Assembly (NCBI GenBank): GCA_018671515.1
Contig: JABHHN010000080.1
Location: forward strand, 21,695 to 85,694
Reading direction: 5' to 3'
DNA: 64,000 nucleotides
Source of the DNA: an archaeon
GTDB lineage: Archaea > Nanobdellota > Nanobdellia > Woesearchaeales > GW2011-AR15
Made by a program: the position numbers and the translations under genes. How positions within the stretch are numbered: the stretch's first letter is position 1; each line of letters begins with the position of its first letter. The notes below the pieces were generated by a model. The model was not told the origin of the DNA. It searched no databases and saw only the letters and a program-made list of their open reading frames with translations. This document shows, in pieces, positions 11,329 to 29,095 of this stretch.

Positions 11329-12144
11329 TTACAGAGAATGGCATTTTTGTTTTAGTTCACAAGAAATACATTTATTTTTATCTTCTACATAGTCTGGAAT
11401 AATTTTAGAATTTAGTAAATTATGTGTCTTATCTTTGATTTCAATTATTTCATCTCTAAAAAAAGGATTCATGTGAACTTTCCTTTTTTCTCCATAATCT
11501 AAATATTTTATATAACCATAATCGATATTTGTATTCATTTTTTCATTTAACATCAACATATATGCTCCAATCTGATATTTATGTCCTAACCAGACTCCTT
11601 CTTGTGGCATTTTTCCTGTTTTTAATTCAATTGGTATCTGTAAACCTTTTTCATGAACTTCTATTTGATCAACTATTCCTCTAAGGCTCAAATTAGTAGA
11701 AAAAATTCTTTTTTCAGATTTTATTTTAGGAGTTAGATTATCCCAAAGAGTTTCTCCAAAATATCCTGTTTTATTTTTATATAAATAAATTTCTTGAGAT
11801 CTATTTATTGATTCTTTTTCTATATATTTCCAATTCAGATTAAATGTGTCTACAAGACCTAAATTTACAGATTTTAAACTTTTTTTATTCTTTTTTACTA
11901 CTTCTTTTAGAAGTGCAAAGTATTTGTATTTGTATTTTTTAAAAATTGAATTCTGAGTTTCATTATTTTGTATGCTTTTTATCAGACTTTCTTCTTCATT
12001 AATTATTGCGTCATATGCATGATGCCTTATTGTTCCTTTAATCATTGCTGCTTTTGGAAATTTCGAAAATTTCAAAACTCTCTCAAGATATAATTTCCTC
12101 GGACAGTATATGTATGAAGACAGCATTGTTACAGATAACATCAT
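11329..12144 (-). CDS. Cas4/RecB-like PD-(D/E)XK nuclease with 4-Cys cluster (stand-alone)
   Basis: N-terminal YCPRKLYL Cys, a D..E.K core (VDQIEV...IELKTGK), a QIGAYMLML (QxxxY) motif and a C-terminal CISCELKQKC. Confidence 0.65.
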   Translation of the reverse strand: MMLSVTMLSSYIYCPRKLYLERVLKFSKFPKAAMIKGTIRHHAYDAIINEEESLIKSIQNNETQNSIFKKYKYKYFALLKEVVKKNKKSLKSVNLGLVDTFNLNWKYIEKESINRSQEIYLYKNKTGYFGETLWDNLTPKIKSEKRIFSTNLSLRGIVDQIEVHEKGLQIPIELKTGKMPQEGVWLGHKYQIGAYMLMLNEKMNTNIDYGYIKYLDYGEKRKVHMNPFFRDEIIEIKDKTHNLLNSKIIPDYVEDKNKCISCELKQKCHSL

Positions 12145-12250
12145 TTTAGTTAATTAAAATAAAAAATTCTATTTAAATAGGTTGGGTTAGAATGTCCAGT
12201 GGTTGGAAGCTATCATAAAAATTAAATAATCAAACATTAATCTATTTAAT

Positions 12251-12569: not shown

Positions 12570-13112
12570 TTACTTTGTGGGCAAAGCACCATATAACATT
12601 TTAATTGTTTCTCTAATAACTTTAATTTGTTTTTCTGGAGATTCATGACCTTCTCCTGAAAATTTCAAGTTATTTATTATAAATCCATAAGTTGTAGGTT
12701 CAAATCTATTATAATCTATATTTAAGCCAAAACAAATATTTTTTTCTTCTCTTTCATTATCTAATTGTTTTCCATTGTATATTATTTGCATTCCTGATAT
12801 TTGATAACTTACTTTGATCTCACCTATCTTTCTTGCTTTATTTTCAGATCTTGAACTTTCATACAAATCAAATAAAAAATATTTCATATTTTCCCCTGAA
12901 TTGTCTCGTCTAGCACCATCTATTAAATTTACTAAACCTTGTTTTTCAGATGATTCATATAAAACAGGGGCCTCATATTTCTGTACTTTTCCATCAATGG
13001 GTTCTTGCTCTATTAATCCGAAAGAAAATTTATAAGGCTTATCTTCTGAAACACTTAATATATCTTCTAAAAAATATCCAATTGCTTCTTTTACAGGAAC
13101 TTTATCTGTCAT
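12570..13112 (-). CDS. hypothetical protein
   Basis: 180-aa ORF with normal, non-low-complexity composition. No family recognised. Confidence 0.5.
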   Translation of the reverse strand: MTDKVPVKEAIGYFLEDILSVSEDKPYKFSFGLIEQEPIDGKVQKYEAPVLYESSEKQGLVNLIDGARRDNSGENMKYFLFDLYESSRSENKARKIGEIKVSYQISGMQIIYNGKQLDNEREEKNICFGLNIDYNRFEPTTYGFIINNLKFSGEGHESPEKQIKVIRETIKMLYGALPTK

Positions 13113-13237
13113 AAAAAAAGAATAAAAATAATATATTTAAATATTTACTATTTTACAGTAATGAATTTATCCTTCAATAATTAAAATATTGTATACAAAA
13201 TTAAAAATAGAATTTAAGATTTATTCTCCCACGTTAA

Positions 13238-13248
13238 TTTTATATATA
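13238..13248 (+). promoter_or_regulatory. TATA-like box for a leaderless transcript starting at the leader ORF
   Basis: TTTATATATAA is centred about 28 nt upstream of ATG 13271. cdc6 shows the same geometry (TTTTTAAACC about 27 nt before ATG 47789). Confidence 0.3.
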
Positions 13249-13270
13249 ACTTAACAATTACATAAACCCT

Positions 13271-13360
13271 ATGTATAGCAATATCGAGCATATGAACTTG
13301 AATTTTGAGAATAAGTTAGATGCATTTACATTTTGGTTTACATATTTCTTTTTTTATTAA
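13271..13360 (+). CDS. candidate aromatic-rich leader peptide (29 aa) of the aromatic amino-acid operon
   Basis: Hand translation gives MYSNIEHMNLNFENKLDAFTFWFTYFFFY-stop. Nine of the last 11 codons are Phe/Trp/Tyr. It lies in a ~380-bp gap 5' of the first pathway gene. Confidence 0.4.
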   Translation: MYSNIEHMNLNFENKLDAFTFWFTYFFFY

Positions 13361-13432
13361 CGGTCTGGTTAAGATTAACAAAAATCTTGCAAGATGTTAA
13401 AAATTTAAATTTTTAATTTCTAAACCGGACCG
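13361..13432 (+). promoter_or_regulatory. stem-loop immediately 3' of the leader ORF stop
   Basis: CGGTCTGGTT (13361-13370) pairs with AACCGGACCG (13423-13432) as 10 bp with 6 G-C pairs and 1 G.U. It is the only GC-rich element in the gap and encloses mutually exclusive small AT hairpins. Confidence 0.45.
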
Positions 13433-13491
13433 ACGCAACGATATTAGTTATTCTAAATTTTATAAAAAAATAAGAACACTTGGGTGAAAAA

Positions 13492-14511
13492 ATGATAATT
13501 GTAATGAAACCAAATACAGTAAAAGAAAACATAGATAAAGTAATCAAAAAAATTGAAGACAATGGACTTAAATCAGTTCCATTATTCGGTACTGAAAAGA
13601 CAGTCATAGCAGTCATTGGAGATTCTAGAAAATATGCAGTTGAAGGATGGAAAGCAATGATTGGTGTTGAGAGTGTCACAAAAATCCTAAAACCATACAA
13701 ACTTGCAAGTAGAAGCCATAATCCAAAAGGTACAATTATAAAAGTTGATGATGTAGAAATTGGAAATGGTAAATTTATAGTCATGGCAGGACCATGTTCA
13801 ATTGAAAGTGAAGAACAAATTATGGAATCTGCAAAAATATTAAAAGATCGAGGAATAAAAATACTTCGAGCTTCTGCATTCAAACCAAGATCTTCTCCTT
13901 ATGCTTTTCAAGGAATGGGTATTGAAGGTCTAAAATTATTAAAAAAAGTAAAAGATGAAACTGGATTAATTGTTGAAACAGAAGTTATGGATGTTCGTGA
14001 TGTAAAGATTGCTGCTGAATATGTTGACATATTAAGAGTTGGTGCAAGAAATATGCAGAATTTTGATCTTCTAAAAGAACTAGGAAGAATAAAAAAACCT
14101 GTAATCTTAAAACGTGGATTAAGTGCTACAATTGATGAATTCATAATGGCTGCAGAATATATACTTTCTGAAGGGAATCCAAATGTCATATTCTGTGAAA
14201 GAGGAATTAGAACTTTTGAGACAAAAGCATATAGAAATACAATGGATATTGCTGCTGTACCTGTACTAAAAAAATTAACACATTTACCAGTAATTGTTGA
14301 TCCAAGTCATGCTGCAGGAAATAGAGAATTAGTATTACCTCTTAGTAAAGCTGCTGCTGCAATTGGTGCTGATGGAATTTTAGTTGAAGTACATCCTAAT
14401 CCTGCACAAGCAATAAGTGATGGAGCGCAAAGCTTATATCCTGAACAGTTTGATGAATTATTAGAAGGTATAAAACCAATATGTAAAGCTGTAGGAAAAG
14501 AGATATCATGA
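13492..14511 (+). CDS. aroF: 3-deoxy-7-phosphoheptulonate (DAHP) synthase, type I-beta with N-terminal regulatory domain
   Basis: N-terminal ferredoxin-like/ACT-like domain (MIIVMKPNT...) followed by a KDO8PS-like barrel (MAGPCSIES, KPRSSPYAFQG, GARNMQNF, DPSHA). ATG 13492 follows a GGTGA SD. Confidence 0.85.
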   Translation: MIIVMKPNTVKENIDKVIKKIEDNGLKSVPLFGTEKTVIAVIGDSRKYAVEGWKAMIGVESVTKILKPYKLASRSHNPKGTIIKVDDVEIGNGKFIVMAGPCSIESEEQIMESAKILKDRGIKILRASAFKPRSSPYAFQGMGIEGLKLLKKVKDETGLIVETEVMDVRDVKIAAEYVDILRVGARNMQNFDLLKELGRIKKPVILKRGLSATIDEFIMAAEYILSEGNPNVIFCERGIRTFETKAYRNTMDIAAVPVLKKLTHLPVIVDPSHAAGNRELVLPLSKAAAAIGADGILVEVHPNPAQAISDGAQSLYPEQFDELLEGIKPICKAVGKEIS

Positions 14512-22741: not shown

Positions 22742-23992
22742 ATGAAAACTAAAACCAATAATATTGAAGTCATGTCGCCTGCAGGATCATATGAAGCACT
22801 TCATGCTGCAATAAAAGCAGGTGCAAATTCTGTATATTTTGGTGTAACTCAATTAAATATGCGTTCTAGATCTTCTAAAAATTTCACATTAGAAGATCTT
22901 AAAAAAATAGCTAAAATATGTTCTGACAATGATGTAAAATCATACTTAACACTAAATACTGTAATGTATGAACACGATATGACATTGATGAAAAAAATAT
23001 GTGATACTGCAAAAAAATCAGGAGTGACTGCATTAATAATTTCAGATATTTCAGCAATGATGTATGCACATTCAATTGGCATAGAAATACATATTTCAAC
23101 ACAGGCAAACGTCTCTAATTTTGAAACTGTAAAATTCTATTCTCAGTTTGCAGATGTAATTGTACTTGCAAGAGAGCTTACATTATCACAAGTAAAAGAA
23201 ATTGTTAAAAAAATAAAAAAAGAAAAAATAGAAGGACCAAATAGAGAATTAGTCCAGATTGAACTTTTTGCTCATGGAGCAATGTGTATAGCAATTTCTG
23301 GAAAATGCTATATGAGTTTATCAACATATAATTCATCTGCTAATAGAGGTGCATGTCTTCAAAACTGTAGAAGATCATACAAAGTGACAGATTTAGAAAC
23401 TGGAGATGAGCTTGAAATTGATAATGAATATGTAATGTCTCCAAAAGATATGTGCACAATTGGTTTTATCGATAAAATGATTGAATCAGGTTCTGTTGTT
23501 CTAAAATTAGAAGGAAGAGGAAAAGCACCTGAATATGTATATACAGTTACAAAATGTTATCGTGAAGCTGTTGATTCATATTATAATGGAACTTATACTA
23601 AAAAGAAAATAAAAAAATTGACTGATGAATTAAAAACTGTATATAATAGAGGATTTTGGGATGGATATTATAGAGGGAAAAAATTAGATATGTGGGCAGG
23701 CGAATATGGCTCACAGGCAACTAAAGAAAAAATATATGTAGGACGTGCAGAAAATTATTATAAAAAATTAGGTATTGCACAATTCGGCCTTGATGCTAAT
23801 TCAATAAGAAAAGGAGACGATTTAATAATAACTGGACCAACTACCGGAATATTAAAACAAAAAGCAAAATCATTATTTATTAATGAAAAAGAAGTTGATA
23901 TCGCACCTAAAGGAAGTGTTGTTACATTTCCAATAAAAGAAATTGTAAGAAAAAATGATAAATTGTTCATTTACAAAGACATAAAAAAGTAA
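22742..23992 (+). CDS. peptidase-U32-family protein (TrhP/RlhA/UbiU-like putative Fe-S hydroxylase)
   Basis: N-terminus EVMSPAGSYEALHAAIKAGANSVYFG. Four Cys are spaced C-x6-C-x15-C-x3-C (CIAISGKCYMSLSTYNSSANRGACLQNC, about nt 23284-23370). Confidence 0.8.
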   Translation: MKTKTNNIEVMSPAGSYEALHAAIKAGANSVYFGVTQLNMRSRSSKNFTLEDLKKIAKICSDNDVKSYLTLNTVMYEHDMTLMKKICDTAKKSGVTALIISDISAMMYAHSIGIEIHISTQANVSNFETVKFYSQFADVIVLARELTLSQVKEIVKKIKKEKIEGPNRELVQIELFAHGAMCIAISGKCYMSLSTYNSSANRGACLQNCRRSYKVTDLETGDELEIDNEYVMSPKDMCTIGFIDKMIESGSVVLKLEGRGKAPEYVYTVTKCYREAVDSYYNGTYTKKKIKKLTDELKTVYNRGFWDGYYRGKKLDMWAGEYGSQATKEKIYVGRAENYYKKLGIAQFGLDANSIRKGDDLIITGPTTGILKQKAKSLFINEKEVDIAPKGSVVTFPIKEIVRKNDKLFIYKDIKK

Positions 23993-24157
23993 TGGTGAAT
24001 TGGAAATAAACTTACTAAAAGTTAGTAGATTTAATTTTTAATAAAAAAATGAAAATAAACTCACTAATGGTTCGTACTTTCCATTTTTTAATAAAAAAAT
24101 GAAAATAAACTCACTAATGGTTCGTACTTTCCATTTTTTAATAAAAAAATGAAAATA
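23991..24157 (+). repeat. 50-bp tandem repeat, ~3.3 copies (one degenerate, two identical, one partial that merges into the fdx start)
   Basis: Units 24041-24090 and 24091-24140 are identical (ATAAAAAAATGAAAATAAACTCACTAATGGTTCGTACTTTCCATTTTTTA). 24001-24040 is a diverged copy. 24141-24157 repeats the first 17 nt. Confidence 0.9.
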
Positions 24158-24370
24158 TCACATCAAAGAGATAAATGTATTGGATGCAATTCATGTGTTG
24201 AAGATGCTTCAGAATACTGGAAAATTTCCAAAGAAGACGGAAAAGCAGATTTATTAGGTTCAATAAAAAAAGGTAATTTTTATATCTTAGAAACTTCAAA
24301 TATTGACATTGAAAAAAACAAAAAAGCAGCAGAAATTTGCCCAGTAAATATTATAAAAATTTATGAGTGA
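24149..24370 (+). CDS. small mono-cluster ferredoxin
   Basis: 73 aa with CIGCNSC...CP (CPVNIIK), the pattern of single-cluster ferredoxins. Confidence 0.7.
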   Translation: MKISHQRDKCIGCNSCVEDASEYWKISKEDGKADLLGSIKKGNFYILETSNIDIEKNKKAAEICPVNIIKIYE

Positions 24371-24375
24371 TAATT

Positions 24376-25167
24376 ATGAAAATAGGTTTATTAGGTCCAG
24401 CAGGAACATTTACGGAAACAGCTTTAAATAAATATAATAAAATTGCTAAAAAAGTATTTTTAAAAAGCCATTTTGATGTATTTGATGCTGTTAATAATGG
24501 TCTAGTTGATAATGGAATTATTGCTATTGAAAATCAAATAAATGGTTTTGTTTTAGCAAATATTGATCTTTTTCTAAATACTAATATGAATATAATTCAA
24601 GAAATAATAATACCAATACATCATTGTCTTGCAATACCTATTGGTTGTAAAAAAATTAAAAACATTATTTCTCATCCACAAGCTCTTGCTCAATGTCAGG
24701 ATTATATTATAAAAAAATATCCAGGTGCCAGAAAAATTCCATCTGAAAGCACAGCTCGAGGAATGGAAGAAACTAAAATTATTAGTAATTCTGCAGGAAT
24801 TGGGCCTACGCTGGCTGCAGAAATGAATGATTTGAATATTATTGATAAAAATATTGAAGATTATAAAAAAAATGAAACAAGATTTTTTATAATAACAAAA
24901 AAAAAAACTATTAATAATAAAGGTAAAAAAACTAGTATAGTATTCATCTGTAAGCATGAACCTGGATCATTATATAATAGTCTAAAAGTATTTGCTAAAA
25001 ATAAAGTAAATCTACTTAATATTTTTTCAAGACCAATAAAAAATAAATCATGGGAATATTCATTTTATATTGAATTAGAAGGAAATGTCAATGGAAAAAA
25101 AATTATTGAATCTATTAAAAAATTAAAAGATCAAAGTTTAAAAGTAAATATTTTGGGATCATATTGA
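24376..25167 (+). CDS. pheA: prephenate dehydratase with C-terminal ACT domain
   Basis: MKIGLLGPAGTFTE, NETRFFIIT (TRF motif) and an ACT segment GSLYNSLKVFAKNKVNLLNIFSRP. Confidence 0.88.
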   Translation: MKIGLLGPAGTFTETALNKYNKIAKKVFLKSHFDVFDAVNNGLVDNGIIAIENQINGFVLANIDLFLNTNMNIIQEIIIPIHHCLAIPIGCKKIKNIISHPQALAQCQDYIIKKYPGARKIPSESTARGMEETKIISNSAGIGPTLAAEMNDLNIIDKNIEDYKKNETRFFIITKKKTINNKGKKTSIVFICKHEPGSLYNSLKVFAKNKVNLLNIFSRPIKNKSWEYSFYIELEGNVNGKKIIESIKKLKDQSLKVNILGSY

Positions 25168-25179
25168 TTTTTGATAAAT

Positions 25180-25189
25180 TTTAAATATA
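25180..25189 (+). promoter_or_regulatory. TATA-like box upstream of the Tyr-rich leader ORF
   Basis: TTTAAATATA is centred about 29 nt upstream of ATG 25214. Confidence 0.3.
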
Positions 25190-25213: not shown

Positions 25214-25288
25214 ATGTCAAGAGATAAATCAAATATGGACTATGCAAAAGATTTATCTAGTGTAAACTTCTATTATTATTATCTATAG
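25214..25288 (+). CDS. candidate Tyr-rich leader peptide (24 aa) upstream of tyrA
   Basis: Hand translation gives MSRDKSNMDYAKDLSSVNFYYYYL-stop, with four consecutive TAT codons preceded by TTC. It lies in the 202-bp gap between pheA and tyrA. Confidence 0.35.
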   Translation: MSRDKSNMDYAKDLSSVNFYYYYL

Positions 25289-25318
25289 ATTTGATCTTAT
25301 TAATTTTAGGTCAAATCT
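25287..25318 (+). promoter_or_regulatory. hairpin overlapping the leader ORF stop codon
   Basis: AGATTTGATC (25287-25296) pairs with GGTCAAATCT (25309-25318) as 10 bp including one G.U, with a 12-nt loop. Confidence 0.4.
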
Positions 25319-25369
25319 CATATTGATAAAATAATTATAATTTATAAAAAAATTAATTATGGTGATAAT

Positions 25370-26200
25370 ATGAAAAATAAAATTGGAATAATAGGCGGAA
25401 ATGGCAGTATGGGCAAATGGTTTAGTAATTTTTTTTCTAATCTCGGTCATGATGTAATTATAAGTGATTTAGGAACTAAACTCAGCAATAAAGATGTTGT
25501 TGAACAATCTGATGTAATAATTATTTCTCTCCCTATGCAAATTGCACCAAAAATTGTTAAAGAAATTTCTAAATTTACTAAAGAAAATCAATTAATTATT
25601 GATATAACTGCATTAAAAGAAGAAATTGTAGAAAAACTTCTAAAAACTAAATCTGAAATTGTAAGTATCCATCCATTATATGGTCCATCATTAAAATCCA
25701 TATCTGGACAGACTGTTGTTGTATGTGATGTAAGAACAGATAAATGGAATGGATGGATTGAAAAAATTCTAAAAAAAGAAGGTGCTAAGATAAAAGAAGC
25801 AACACCAAAAAAACATGATAAAATGATGTCTGTAATTCAAGGTCTCACACATTTTAGTCTTATAAGTCTTGGTCATGCATTAAAAGAACTTGATATTGAT
25901 ATTGACGAGAGTCTGCAATACACAAGTCCGATATATAAAATAAGATTAGAAATGGTAGGAAGGATTTTGAATCAAAATCCTGTTGTATATTCAGATATAG
26001 CTATAAATAATAAAAATAGTAAAGACATCTTAAGTGTTATGATGAAATCTATGGATGAACTTAAAAAAATAATAAACAATAAAGATAGTGAAGGTTTTAT
26101 TGATTATTTCAACAAAGCATCAAATCATTTTGGTGAATTTAAAAAAGAAGCAATGATAGAAAGTGATAAAATGATAAAGGCGGTAAGTGAAGATGAATGA
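25370..26200 (+). CDS. tyrA: prephenate dehydrogenase
   Basis: GIIGGNGSMGKWF Rossmann fold, SIHPLYGP and HDKMMSVIQGLTHF. GGTGA SD at 25361-25365. Confidence 0.85.
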   Translation: MKNKIGIIGGNGSMGKWFSNFFSNLGHDVIISDLGTKLSNKDVVEQSDVIIISLPMQIAPKIVKEISKFTKENQLIIDITALKEEIVEKLLKTKSEIVSIHPLYGPSLKSISGQTVVVCDVRTDKWNGWIEKILKKEGAKIKEATPKKHDKMMSVIQGLTHFSLISLGHALKELDIDIDESLQYTSPIYKIRLEMVGRILNQNPVVYSDIAINNKNSKDILSVMMKSMDELKKIINNKDSEGFIDYFNKASNHFGEFKKEAMIESDKMIKAVSEDE

Positions 26201-27254
26201 AAAAATAATTGATGTAAATGTCTCAAATTATGAAAAAGTAATTGCTCCTTCAAAATTAAAAGAAGAAATGCCTCTTAATGAAGCAGGATCATTAATAGTT
26301 AAAAAAGCAAGAGAAAATATCAAAAATATAATGTCAGGAAAAGACAAAAGAAAGATAATAATAACAGGTCCTTGTTCAATTCATGACACAAAACAAGCAA
26401 AAGAATATGCTCAAAAACTTTCAAAATTATCAAAAAAAGTTAATGATAAGTTTGTAATAATAATGAGAGCTTATTTTGAAAAACCTAGAACTACAATTGG
26501 TTGGAAAGGTCTAATTAATGATCCAAATATTAATGGAACATACGATACAAATTTAGGATTAAAACTAGCAAGAAAAGTTTTACTTGATGCAATATCATTA
26601 GGAATCCCTTGTGGAACTGAATTTTTAGAACCATTCACACCACAATTCATTGATGATTTAATCTCTTGGGTAGGTATAGGTGCAAGAACTTCTGAATCTC
26701 CAACCCATAGACAATTAGCTTCTGGACTTTCATCTCCTGTTGGTTTTAAGAATAGTACAAATGGTGATGTCAAAGTAGCAATAAATGCAATAAAATCTGC
26801 TAGTGCTCCACAAGCTTTTTTTGGAATGGATGATGAAGGTATGGTTTGTAATGTTTCAACTAAAGGAAATAAATTTGGTCATATAATTCTTCGTGGTGGA
26901 AAAAATCCTAATTATTTCAAAGAAGATATTAAAAATATTCAAAATATGTTAAATGATACTAATCTAAATGATTCTATAATTGTTGATTGCAGTCATGGAA
27001 ATTCAGGTAAAGATCATAAAAAACAGTCTGATGTGTTTAATGATATAATAAATCAAATAAATAACGGAAATGACAAAATAATTGGAATAATGATCGAATC
27101 AAATATAAATGAAGGAAATCAAAAAATTCCAAATGATTTAACCGAATTTGATAGATTAAATCTTATACATGGGGTATCAATTACAGATGGTTGTGTTGAT
27201 TGGAATACAACTGAAAAAATGATACTTAATAATTATGATAAATTAAAAATATAA
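26193..27254 (+). CDS. aroG: DAHP synthase, type I-alpha (E. coli AroG/F/H-like)
   Basis: Near-collinear with E. coli AroG as I recall it: ITGPCSIHD, YFEKPRTTIGWKGLINDP, GARTSESPTHRQLASGLS, PVGFKN, IILRGG. The start is ATG 26193, or alternatively GTG 26187. Confidence 0.88.
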   Translation: MNEKIIDVNVSNYEKVIAPSKLKEEMPLNEAGSLIVKKARENIKNIMSGKDKRKIIITGPCSIHDTKQAKEYAQKLSKLSKKVNDKFVIIMRAYFEKPRTTIGWKGLINDPNINGTYDTNLGLKLARKVLLDAISLGIPCGTEFLEPFTPQFIDDLISWVGIGARTSESPTHRQLASGLSSPVGFKNSTNGDVKVAINAIKSASAPQAFFGMDDEGMVCNVSTKGNKFGHIILRGGKNPNYFKEDIKNIQNMLNDTNLNDSIIVDCSHGNSGKDHKKQSDVFNDIINQINNGNDKIIGIMIESNINEGNQKIPNDLTEFDRLNLIHGVSITDGCVDWNTTEKMILNNYDKLKI

Positions 27255-27321
27255 ATTGATTTAAAATGAAAGATATTATTAAAAATAATAAAAATATTCA
27301 AAGGATGAAGTTGATGACAAA

Positions 27322-27999
27322 ATGATAGGAACTATAGTAAATGTGATTGCAATAATTATAGGTTCTTTAATTGGTATTCTTTTTAATAAATTTATTCCTA
27401 AAAGAGTAAAAGAAATAATATTTCAGGCATTAGGGTTATCAACTATTTTAATTGGAATGCAATTAGCATTAAAAACTGAAAATGTATTGTTAGTCATTTT
27501 TAGTTTAATAATTGGTGGAATAATTGGAGAATTGATACATATAGAAAAAAAATTAAAAAAATTTGGAATTTCATTAAAAAAAAAATTAAAATCAAAAGAT
27601 TCTAAATTTGTAGAAGGATTTGTTACAACAAGTCTTCTTTTCTGTGTTGGTGCAATGGCAATTGTAGGCTCAATTGAAGACGGAATAAATAATAACCCTT
27701 CAATATTATTAACAAAATCCCTCTTAGATGGTTTTGCATCAATTGCTTTTGCAAGTGCTTTGGGTTTTGGTGTTATGTTTTCAGCAATCCCAATTTTAAT
27801 TTATCAGGGTGGTCTAACTTTGTTAGCTGTTTATATTAAACAATATTTGACTCCTTCTGCAATAACTGAAATGAGTGCTGTTGGTGGATTGTTAATTATT
27901 GGAATTGGATTAAGTCTTTTAAATATCAAAAAAATAAAAATTGGAAATCTGCTTCCTTCTGTTTTGGTAGCAGCCATATTAGCTATAATATTTATGTAG
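27322..27999 (+). CDS. DUF554-family membrane protein
   Basis: MIGTIVNVIAIIIGSLIGILF N-terminus, ~225 aa, multi-TM. Confidence 0.6.
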   Translation: MIGTIVNVIAIIIGSLIGILFNKFIPKRVKEIIFQALGLSTILIGMQLALKTENVLLVIFSLIIGGIIGELIHIEKKLKKFGISLKKKLKSKDSKFVEGFVTTSLLFCVGAMAIVGSIEDGINNNPSILLTKSLLDGFASIAFASALGFGVMFSAIPILIYQGGLTLLAVYIKQYLTPSAITEMSAVGGLLIIGIGLSLLNIKKIKIGNLLPSVLVAAILAIIFM

Positions 28000-28009
28000 G
28001 TGAAATAAA

Positions 28010-29095
28010 ATGAATGTTAATGAAAGATTAAAATTAATTAAAGAAGTTGGTGAAGAAATAGTCACCAATGATGAACTTAAAGCGCTTTTAAATGAAAAAG
28101 AAAAATTTGTTGCCTATGATGGTTTTGAACCAAGTGGAACAGATATTCACATTGCACAAGGTCTTCTTAGAGCTATAAATGTTAATAAGATGACAAAAGC
28201 AGGTGCACATTTTAAGATGTGGGTTGCAGATTGGCATGCATGGGCTAATAATAAGATGGGTGGAGACCTTGAAAAAATCCAATATGTAGGAAATTATTAT
28301 ATTGAAGTATGGAAAGCTTGTGGAATGGATTTAGATAATGTTGAATTTATCTGGGCAAGTGAAGCAATGGGTAAAAAAGAATATTGGAAAATTGTCATGA
28401 ATATTGCAAGAACATCATCACTAAATAGAATTATCAGATGTGGACAAATCATGGGAAGAAGTGAAAAAGATAATTTATCAGCATCACAAATTTTCTATCC
28501 TTGTATGCAAGCTGCAGATATATTCTACTTAAAGGCAGATGTAACACAGTTAGGAGTAGATCAAAGAAAAGTAAATGTTCTTGCTCGTGAAGTCGGCCCT
28601 AAACTTGGTTTTTGGAAACCTATAATTGTAAGTCATCATATGTTAATGGGATTAAATGAACCTCCAAAAGATTCAAAAGATATGGATGCAAAAGACAGAA
28701 CTATTGAATTAAAAATGTCAAAATCAAAACCAGATACTGCAATATTTATGACTGATTCTGAAAAAGATATCAAAAGAAAGATGAATAAAGCATGGTGTCC
28801 TCAAGGTCAGGTAGATGAAAATCCAATAATGGAATATTTTAAATATATAATTTTTGAAAAATATGATAAAATTGATATAAAAAGACCTGAAAAATTTGGT
28901 GGAGATTTAAATATTGGTAGTTATGATGAGCTTACAGAAATGTTTTCAAGTGGAAAAGTTCATCCAATGGATCTTAAAAATACTGCTGGTAATTATATCA
29001 ATGAACTTATTGATCCAATAAGAGAAAAATTACTAAATGATCCGAAAATAAAAGAAATGAGAGAGAAAATTCAGACATTTAAGGTGACTAGGTAA
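28010..29095 (+). CDS. tyrS: tyrosine--tRNA ligase (long archaeal form)
   Basis: YDGFEPSG..HIAQG, VADWHAW.NNKMGGDLEKIQ and a KMSKS motif (LKMSKSKP). Confidence 0.85.
   Translation: MNVNERLKLIKEVGEEIVTNDELKALLNEKEKFVAYDGFEPSGTDIHIAQGLLRAINVNKMTKAGAHFKMWVADWHAWANNKMGGDLEKIQYVGNYYIEVWKACGMDLDNVEFIWASEAMGKKEYWKIVMNIARTSSLNRIIRCGQIMGRSEKDNLSASQIFYPCMQAADIFYLKADVTQLGVDQRKVNVLAREVGPKLGFWKPIIVSHHMLMGLNEPPKDSKDMDAKDRTIELKMSKSKPDTAIFMTDSEKDIKRKMNKAWCPQGQVDENPIMEYFKYIIFEKYDKIDIKRPEKFGGDLNIGSYDELTEMFSSGKVHPMDLKNTAGNYINELIDPIREKLLNDPKIKEMREKIQTFKVTR

Follow-up and report, generated by a model that had tools for sequence, protein, structure and literature searches.

The 64-kb stretch of DNA analysed here, part of contig JABHHN010000080.1 and hereafter called the window, contains two small open reading frames (ORFs) ahead of genes for aromatic amino-acid synthesis. 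The first, of 29 codons, precedes the shikimate (aro) operon, ends in a run of phenylalanine, tryptophan and tyrosine codons and is followed directly by an RNA stem. The second precedes the prephenate dehydrogenase gene (tyrA), ends in a run of tyrosine codons and has a stem-loop over its stop codon. We consider it probable that both ORFs encode leader peptides of ribosome-mediated attenuators and act as functional amino-acid-sensing leaders. The window has a GC content of about 26%, and it is recognised as archaeal because it encodes aRF1, the large subunit (DP2) of DNA polymerase D (PolD) and an archaeal MCM; its host is an archaeon of a DPANN lineage. The core of the initial annotation, a leaderless aromatic sensor ORF with a post-stop stem before an archaeal shikimate operon, was supported both by related loci and by the second, tyrosine leader. 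The observation was confirmed and is conserved among relatives; its best explanation is a leader-peptide attenuator of a known type that occurs in a new domain of life, is predicted to be leaderless and lacks a canonical terminator.

Leader-peptide attenuation is a textbook form of control through coupled transcription and translation and has been regarded as invented by bacteria; coupling of the two is also found in archaea. The statement in the initial annotation that no archaeal case had been demonstrated agrees with our full-text literature search, which found no report of leader-peptide attenuation in archaea; many subscription papers lay outside the coverage of this search, and its result is absence of evidence only.

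Predicted leader ORFs and their promoters

The gap before aroF, the DAHP synthase gene that opens the aro operon, had been put at about 380 bp and measures 379 nt (13113-13491). The coordinates and the translation of the 29-codon ORF within this gap proved correct on checking, as did the presence of Phe, Trp or Tyr at 9 of its last 11 codons, and this run would be the zone in which ribosomes stall. The TATA-like box and the leaderless geometry described for the ORF were also recovered: a perfect TATA box lies 32 nt from the ATG, no Shine-Dalgarno (SD) motif stands between the two, and the final 16 nt before the leader ATG contain no SD-like motif. It had been cautioned that T-rich DNA yields Phe codons easily. 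A six-frame scan of the window bore this out, revealing 10 segments with at least 9 F/W/Y codons in 11, mostly antisense to genes, and an aromatic run by itself is weak evidence at 26% GC. On both strands of the window, a perfect TATA 8-mer lies 30-34 nt before only 16 ATGs. These are the starts of six long ORFs taken as genes, a few intragenic sites, the aro leader and the leader at 25214.

The latter, the tyrosine leader, lies inside the 202-nt gap before the gene for prephenate dehydrogenase, a tyrosine-branch enzyme. A tyrA relative with 58% identity (locus L169) has a leader ending in SANFFYYYR at the corresponding place, preceded by an ORF whose C-terminal sequence resembles the prephenate dehydratase of the window (a sequence likeness only). 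The leaders before tyrA carry Tyr runs (YYYY in the window, YYY in L169), whereas those before DAHP synthase genes mix F, Y and W. Such a match between residue type and pathway branch is what sensor peptides should be expected to show.

Conservation of the ORF, of its aromatic codons and of the stem among relatives had been named as a check on the initial reading. We gathered orthologous loci from collections of genomes and metagenomes and through exact look-ups of proteins. The resulting set of 18 leaders consists of 16 from aroF, covering every archaeal aroF locus with 200 nt or more of upstream DNA (the window and 15 relatives), and two from tyrA loci (the window and L169); another tyrA relative (L170) was left out, its contig beginning 27 nt 5' of tyrA. 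An ORF of 15-29 codons with a terminal run of Phe, Tyr and Trp codons was present in all 16 aroF loci. Over the last 12 codons of the 18 leaders, the share of F/W/Y was 58% in frame, compared with 14% and 28% in the other two frames and 7% in the N-terminal parts. In addition, 13 of the 16 aroF leaders contain a TGG codon, at an ORF GC content of 23-32%. The composition of the aromatic tail is constant across leaders, while its sequence varies. No leader ORF was found where the gene is internal to an operon (L004 and L005, and tyrA in L171). We regard this comparison with relatives, made on sequence, as decisive for the predicted leader.

The leader peptides were sorted into two classes. Those of class A are MTSLATTNKLWFKLDSFFYYFFS, MASLTSIKKSFWLGYFTFFYFFS, MTNLIEIKNVSSWLDYFAYFYFYFS, MTSLAKTNKFWSFKLDSFAYFFYYFG, MLNLAKLQKSSFKLDISFYFSYFFA, MTTFDAAKSVDFRLDVFFFRYFFR, MNTLTCSKLFESELEIFFYRFFGYYFW and MKSAGIRKSMVFLAVSFFSFFGYYFFYW, while the six of class B all terminate in SYFYFWQ; one further peptide, MSAIKAPQFYFRFYF, is unclassed. 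Class A leaders share the motif K/R-L-D-x-F just 5' of the aromatic run (13313-13321 in the window), encoded by a conserved RTTAGAT. The motif is found in L002, L161, L163 and L164, with the variants K-L-D-I-S-F in L166 and E-L-E-I-F in L165, and its importance may lie in the peptide (stalling or the exit tunnel) or in the RNA. The initial annotation had also pointed to a T7 run at 13349-13355, created by the Phe codons, as a possible archaeal termination signal. The run is indeed present in the window, but it is not conserved, as the six leaders ending in FYFWQ use TTC, TAT and TGG codons and have no T run longer than T3. A terminator role for the T7 run inside the ORF was consequently dropped, the run being missing from class B leaders.

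The promoters of the leaders are equally uniform. In 18 of 18 leaders, a TATA box that is perfect or matches at 7 of 8 positions begins 30-34 nt before the ATG, and no SD-like motif lies between. The boxes read TTTATATA, TTTAAATA or TTTAAAAA, and some are preceded by cgaaag, which resembles a B recognition element (BRE). In archaea, the centre of the TATA box lies about 26-27 nt before the transcription start. With a spacing of 30-34 nt, the 5' end would therefore fall at the ATG or within about 3 nt of it, and the sensor ORFs are predicted to begin at the 5' end of the transcript and to be leaderless. Among the genes of the window, 20 have only a TATA box, 8 only an SD and 5 both; the rule is that a gene opening a transcription unit has a TATA box at -29 to -35 and lacks an SD, and that an SD marks internal genes. 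Because both aroF and tyrA carry a strong SD, they are read as internal cistrons of a leader-headed transcript.

A common motif, TTTATAAAAAAAT, occurs at 13458-13470 and 25342-25354, about 20-25 nt 5' of the SDs of aroF and tyrA, and a TATA-like element, TTTATAAA, is found in front of both genes. The element before aroF is not conserved in most relatives and is absent from L163, L164, L165 and L001. These sequences may constitute a weak internal promoter or may be part of the read-out.

RNA structure at the stop codon

The 10-bp stem described directly after the stop codon of the aro leader (13361-13370 with 13423-13432; here P1) was confirmed, with one G.U pair, and the hairpin placed in its loop (AAGATT at 13371-76 with AATCTT at 13383-88; P2) had correct coordinates and forms in the fold. 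P1 closes a three-way junction with P2 and a further hairpin at 13392-13421 (P3). The minimum free energy of the region 13358-13436 is -24.3 kcal/mol (z = -6.7), and none of 200 shuffled sequences was as stable.

An alignment of five class A loci with MAFFT and RNAalifold recovered P1 only partly because the loops are unalignable, and we therefore relied on an alignment-free, anchored-duplex test. In this test, the 16 nt around the first post-stop base were paired with the next 84 nt, and the best duplex was compared with those at every fifth position of the same locus. The stop-anchored duplex of the aro leader in the window (-17.7 kcal/mol) was stronger than those at all 2351 other positions tested within 6 kb. 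In 11 leaders, namely nine aroF leaders and both tyrA leaders, the stop-anchored duplex ranked among the best 5% of local positions, and Fisher's combined p for all 18 leaders was 4e-11. In these 11 loci, P1 has its 5' arm beginning at -3 to 0 nt relative to the stop codon, and the z-scores of the stems span -1.9 to -6.7.

The arms themselves are unrelated in sequence between loci (CGGTCTGGTT, GCTCAGGGTTT, GCCCGGATTT, GTCCTGGGA, ATCCTTGG, TTCCTTCC and AAACCTTTTGG). Regarding the proposed check on compensatory change, the stem begins 0-1 nt from the stop codon in 9 of the 16 aroF loci, with arms that differ yet pair, and the stem of the tyrosine leader in L169 differs from that of the window by a change of U-A to C-G and another of A-U to G.U, both of which keep the pairing. 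Because of the G.U pairs and the covariation, P1 is taken to be an RNA structure. A DNA operator was considered in its place and is unlikely, since the arms contain G.U pairs and covary rather than keep their sequence.

A second predicted helix, P4, would compete with P1. It joins the stretches that follow the two arms of P1; in the window it pairs 13371-91 with 13434-55 (-11.6 kcal/mol; z = -2.8), and 1.7% of shuffles were as good. Equivalents were found in L161 (-20.1 kcal/mol, z = -5.5), L163, L002 and L164, so that P4 is present in 5 of 11 class A loci (p <= 0.027 against shuffles); short-loop loci and class B lack it. Because the connecting segments are only 0-3 nt long, P1 and P4 are mutually exclusive and would constitute a two-state switch. 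As a separate observation, most class A loci have a tract rich in T or in pyrimidines (TTTCT, TTTT) immediately before the 3' arm of P1 (13415-13422 in the window). In a post hoc comparison within class A, the T content of the 8 nt before this arm was 49%, against 31% in spacers (p = 5e-4).

The leaders of class B are folded differently. In the hairpin formed by a 28-nt block, TTCTATTTCTGGCAGTAAGCCAGACCAC, the stop codon occupies the loop; four aligned class B loci share the block without a difference, while L167 and L168 differ from it at 1 and 3 positions, respectively. A second, covarying hairpin follows the block, and then, in most loci, a T5-T6 tract. Inspection by eye showed short repeats in common with the second hairpin, and these differ between loci. 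Three class B loci have inserts of about 100-150 nt, GC-rich and strongly folding, between the leader and aroF (L083:1860-1960, L084:1810-1960, L085:1815-1940 and L085:1490-1580). They have no Rfam match, and a motif, GGGGGTTGTCCC, recurs 3' of the leader in L084 and 5' of the leader in L085. These inserts may represent a mobile or structured RNA element.

Searches against all Rfam families with cmscan gave no hit above the gathering threshold in the window. Leader families (the Trp, Phe, His, Leu, Thr and Leu/Phe leaders were considered), riboswitches and T-boxes were not found, and no tRNA gene was found alongside these scans. At E <= 10, the sole hit within 13000-13600 was a chance snoRNA match. 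On 20 related loci, only 5S rRNA was matched.

Table 1. Positions of the two leaders, their RNA elements and the genes behind them, in window coordinates
Feature	Position	Strand	Remarks
TATA box of the aro leader transcript, TTTATATA	13239-13246	+	first base 32 nt 5' of the leader ATG
aro leader ORF, 29 codons plus stop, MYSNIEHMNLNFENKLDAFTFWFTYFFFY	13271-13360	+	
Aromatic codon run, F T F W F T Y F F F Y	13325-13357	+	contains the only TGG of the ORF
P1, 5' arm, CGGTCTGGTT	13361-13370	+	starts at the first base after the stop
P2, inner hairpin AAGATT/AATCTT	13371-13388	+	with 13389-13391 doubles as the 5' strand of P4 (b)
P3, inner A/U hairpin	13392-13421	+	contains a T5 run (13407-13411) and TTTCT just 5' of the P1 3' arm
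P1, 3' arm, AACCGGACCG	13423-13432	+	
b', 3' strand of the alternative helix P4	13434-13455	+	pairs with 13371-13391
TATA-like element, TTTATAAA	13459-13466	+	33 nt before the aroF ATG; tyrA counterpart 29 nt before ATG
SD of the DAHP synthase gene, GGGTGA	13482-13487	+	
DAHP synthase gene (aroF)	13492-14511	+	operon gene 1; type with N-terminal ferredoxin-like domain
TATA box of the Tyr leader, TTTAAATA	25180-25187	+	34 nt 5' of ATG
Tyr leader ORF, MSRDKSNMDYAKDLSSVNFYYYYL, ending in NFYYYYL	25214-25288	+	5' of tyrA; four Tyr codons in series at 25271-25282
Stem-loop over the Tyr leader stop, 11 bp, AGATTTGATCT/AGGTCAAATCT	25287-25318	+	8-nt loop; z = -4.2
Prephenate dehydrogenase gene (tyrA)	25370-26200	+	SD GGTGAT at 25361-25366

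Counterparts, proposed mechanism and alternative explanations

Bacterial DAHP synthase genes were found to have leaders of a similar kind. Of 154 bacterial loci (L006-L160), 74 had on the sense strand a best short upstream ORF with 5 or more F/W/Y in 8 codons, compared with 8 of 154 in the reverse-strand control. The bacterial aromatic leaders thus occur in about half of the loci and span Acidobacteria, Clostridia, Geobacter and others. High-GC Acidobacteria carry leaders ending in NSFRFWYWFSA, so AT-richness cannot be the cause of the leaders there. Acidobacteria have a hairpin-plus-U terminator, AACCCACUCgaaaGAGUGGGUUUUU, whose 5' arm is the pairing partner of the strand beginning at the stop codon; the helix between the two is the antiterminator. 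None of the nine bacterial leader loci scanned matched an Rfam family, and together these data point to a widespread, uncatalogued class of bacterial attenuators before DAHP synthase genes. The leaders of Acidobacteria, Clostridia, Geobacter and other bacteria resemble the archaeal ones in the downstream gene family (50-58% identity) and in the helix at the stop codon, and bacterial tails such as SFRFWYWFSA and FWYFYFY resemble the archaeal SFRFSYFYFWQ. In contrast to the archaeal loci, the bacterial ones have a clear terminator (AACCCACUCgaaaGAGUGGGUUUUU), whereas the promoter and translation start of the archaeal leaders are archaeal-type.

The classical leader-peptide transcription attenuators are trpL, pheL-pheA and hisL of Escherichia coli. 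Like these, the archaeal loci have a short ORF before a biosynthetic operon with clustered codons for the end product, and a stop codon placed so that a terminating ribosome would mask the 5' strand of a helix (region 2); mutually exclusive folds are predicted in the five loci with P4. Unlike these, the archaeal leaders belong to an archaeal host, are predicted to be leaderless, combine a TATA box 30-34 nt upstream with the lack of an SD, and are without the region 3:4 hairpin with its U run; moreover, P1 and P4 exclude each other by topology, whereas the E. coli-type helices do so by a shared strand. Leader peptides also act in Rho-dependent attenuation, as in mgtL-mgtA and tnaC of enterobacteria. 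There, as may be the case for FttA-dependent termination, ribosome position picks the fold and the fold gates a factor acting on an uncoupled polymerase; this likeness is pure analogy, and it fits the archaeal loci in that no intrinsic terminator is needed.

Two further systems come closer in single respects. In the summary of Neshat et al. 2014 given in PMC11802643, the experimentally studied aroR leader of Corynebacterium glutamicum (Phe-Tyr-Phe) controls aroF, and expression rises on ribosome stalling. As summarised there, this system shares with the archaeal loci a mixed-aromatic leader directly before a DAHP synthase operon and differs in its bacterial promoter and termination; the likeness is one of layout, and the archaeal runs are longer than that reported for aroR, with 6-9 aromatic residues in the last 12 and Trp usual. 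In mycobacteria, leaderless polycysteine small ORFs (sORFs) act through a stalled ribosome that blocks a duplex hiding the following gene's ribosome-binding site (Canestrari et al., 10.1101/834739). These have in common with the archaeal leaders a sensor ORF, leaderless or in the archaeal case predicted to be so, placed first in an operon, a run of pathway codons and a downstream fold that changes, or in the archaeal case would change, upon stalling; unlike in the mycobacterial case, no specific complementarity hiding a ribosome-binding site was found for the archaeal leaders.

Under the mechanism that we propose, the aro leader would control the common aromatic pathway and sense Phe, Tyr and Trp, and the tyrA leader would control the tyrosine branch and sense Tyr. 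Transcription would begin about 26 nt after the TATA centre, at or next to the ATG, making the ORF a leaderless first cistron. When charged aromatic tRNAs are plentiful, the ribosome would reach the stop codon, and its footprint would mask the next 12 nt or so, which form the 5' arm of P1. The 3' arm would then be transcribed while the 5' arm is masked, so that P1 would be blocked and, in long-loop loci, P4 would form instead. When charged aromatic tRNA is scarce, the ribosome would stall in the aromatic run, 4-11 codons 5' of the stop, and P1 would form. P1 would therefore report stalling, because a ribosome at the stop masks the 5' arm and a stalled ribosome leaves it free. The masking is argued from geometry, using ribosome footprint sizes taken from bacteria. 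The geometry of P1 would correspond to region 2:3 of bacterial attenuators, that is, to the antiterminator position; the P1 state would permit expression of the SD-led downstream genes, and the other state would lower it.

The read-out of this switch may be premature 3'-end formation or termination that proceeds without a bacterial hairpin-plus-U terminator. The candidates are FttA/aCPSF1-dependent termination acting on an uncoupled polymerase, and blocking of a ribosome landing zone by P4, followed by polarity. Archaeal termination involves U tracts together with aCPSF1/FttA (PMC8716108). FttA binds single-stranded nascent RNA, of which 17 nt contact it in the solved complex; the path from the polymerase active centre through FttA takes up about 36 nt of RNA, and FttA is thought to target polymerases uncoupled from the ribosome (PMC11616081). 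A factor-dependent or polarity-type read-out is the likeliest, and we put it forward tentatively; a translational read-out ranks next and appears unlikely; our confidence in any particular read-out is low. No evidence of FttA action was found at these loci, whose host organisms are uncultured, and the only hint, a post hoc one, is the T-rich tract before the 3' arm of P1.

Several observations weigh against this interpretation. First, the absence of a classical hairpin-plus-U terminator, already noted as a caveat in the initial annotation, was borne out: a terminator scan revealed no hairpin-plus-T-run terminator between leader and gene for either leader of the window. A T run of at least 5 after P1 is absent in 10 of 11 class A loci, no T run follows P4, and no region 4 complementary to the 3' arm of P1 was found by eye or by constrained folding. 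Second, P4 is missing in 6 of 11 class A loci. Third, in the anchored-duplex test, the post-stop strand of the six leaders ending in FYFWQ has no significant downstream partner, and the different hairpin that these class B leaders form across the stop codon may make a single mechanism for all loci doubtful. Fourth, partition-function modelling gave no consistent difference in SD/AUG accessibility between a stalled ribosome and a ribosome at the stop codon. Fifth, two conceivable couplings would predict the wrong direction of control: a ribosome pushing the polymerase through the T-rich tract, and an increase in naked RNA available to FttA during stalling. Finally, the TATA-like element TTTATAAA about 30 nt 5' of aroF and tyrA could allow transcription independent of the leader.

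The foremost alternative is a translational attenuator like the mycobacterial leaderless Cys-sORFs or the erm type, in which, in the free RNA, the SD/AUG region of the next gene, which is A-rich, would be paired with the U-rich aromatic codons or with a segment close to them, a stalled ribosome would unmask the SD/AUG, and transcription would not be the regulated step. We consider this unlikely. It has a precedent in mycobacteria (10.1101/834739), and in 11 of 18 loci the modelled accessibility of the SD/AUG is lower without a ribosome than with a stalled one (0.31 vs 0.65 for aroF of the window). However, the accessibility does not differ between the stalled ribosome and the ribosome at the stop. 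In the window, a hairpin in the tyrA spacer (25318-25373, z = -2.6) takes in both SD and AUG, but it was not seen in L169; in L167, a hairpin abuts the SD, and by eye its 3' arm, AAGACTA, repeats post-stop sequence. The complementarity between tail and gene start falls at the 49th percentile for aroF and the 20th for tyrA when compared with 55 other gene starts of the window, so the aromatic codons pair with the start region no better than with other gene starts, and the exact start of P1 at the stop codon is left unexplained. SD/AUG masking was thus rejected as a read-out, there being no consistent shift in accessibility and only generic pairing of the tail.

According to a second alternative, which we regard as distinctly improbable, the product of the ORF would itself be functional, as a small peptide rich in aromatic residues (for example a micro-protein with a membrane or regulatory role); the stem would serve a short transcript of the ORF as its 3' end or as a stabiliser, and the pathway genes would have their own transcription, starting from the TATA-like element about 33 nt 5' of the gene ATG. 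The leader peptides of pure codon sensors usually lack conserved motifs of the K/R-L-D-x-F sort, and the conservation of this motif in class A would be in keeping with a functional peptide. Besides the elements of the window at 33 nt (aroF) and 29 nt (tyrA) before the ATG, AT-rich, TATA-like 8-mers were seen by eye at about -28 to -32 in L166, L161 and L162. The element is, however, missing in L163, L164, L165 and L001, where only 37-53 nt follow P1, and the SD in front of aroF and tyrA is of the kind seen at internal cistrons. The residue content of the peptides follows the pathway branch, and their tail varies in sequence but not in composition. Moreover, the T run that serves as an archaeal termination signal is absent after the stem, and the bacterial counterparts are clearly attenuators. 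Lastly, a chance ORF in an AT-rich spacer, lying beside an unrelated structured element (a protein-binding RNA or a DNA inverted repeat) with translation and stem unlinked, has next to no standing: although aromatic-dense segments are common in the window and Phe and Tyr codons arise readily from T-rich DNA, such an origin is already contradicted, at the level of sequence comparison, by the presence of the ORF in every archaeal aroF locus, the frame-specific enrichment, the frequency of TGG, the exact TATA spacing, the stop-anchored stems with differing arms in 11 loci and the like leaders of high-GC Acidobacteria.

Gene neighbourhood and significance

The closest relatives of the aroF product are DAHP synthases of Woesearchaeota, Nanoarchaeota and Nanoarchaeia metagenome-assembled genomes (62-79% identity), followed by bacterial ones (50-58%). 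The aro operon has the order aroF, aroB, aroA, a Nudix gene, aroK, a fused aroD/aroE, an EamA transporter gene, aroC and the genes for chorismate mutase, an aminotransferase and a U32 peptidase, and it ends at 23992. Downstream are the genes for prephenate dehydratase, prephenate dehydrogenase, a second DAHP synthase, a DUF554 protein and a class Ib tRNA synthetase. An apparent operon behind the tyrosine leader (25370-29095) consists of tyrA, the DAHP synthase of a different family (26193-27254), the DUF554 membrane protein and the class Ib (Trp/Tyr) tRNA synthetase. Because the second DAHP synthase gene sits in this operon, the archaeon has two such enzymes, each encoded 3' of its own leader.

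We saw no clear Phe leader before pheA. The region upstream of the prephenate dehydratase gene (24376-25167) contains a 73-codon ORF for a Cys-rich, ferredoxin-like protein (24149-24370), directly 5' of that gene, and a perfect tandem repeat at 24035-24157 (period 50, 2.5 copies, 100% identity) that duplicates the start region of this ORF; each full copy carries ATG AAA ATA and encodes MKINSLMVRTFHFLIKK followed by a stop. On the minus strand, a short ORF at 12187-12237 (MFDYLIFMIASNHWTF), with a perfect TATA box 34 nt 5' of it, occupies the gap before a PD-(D/E)XK/Cas4-like gene (11329-12144); this combination is probably a chance match. Among the relatives, L162 has a 5S rRNA gene (821-936; Rfam, 79 bits) about 75 nt 5' of the ATG of its aro leader.

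On balance, we lean towards the view that archaea use ribosome-mediated attenuation: in DPANN archaea (Woesearchaeota, Nanoarchaeota-type), leaderless ORFs would sense charged Phe, Tyr and Trp tRNAs and set the shikimate and tyrosine operons via an RNA switch anchored at the stop codon. Because the switch would work without a bacterial intrinsic terminator, its output would have to pass through archaeal machinery, for example by FttA/aCPSF1-dependent termination or by polarity. Possibly the element came in together with bacterial-type aro genes and was later adapted to a TATA promoter and to leaderless translation. With 18 examples and two amino-acid specificities, the question of attenuation in archaea becomes testable, and the order TATA box, 30-34 nt, ATG, short ORF with a codon run and stem at the stop provides a search rule for further archaeal attenuators. 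An element that does without the bacterial terminator could reveal how the position of a ribosome is conveyed to the eukaryote-like polymerase and termination factor of archaea. The finding also means that some DPANN archaea, usually viewed as metabolically dependent, retain a full aromatic amino-acid pathway and would regulate it.

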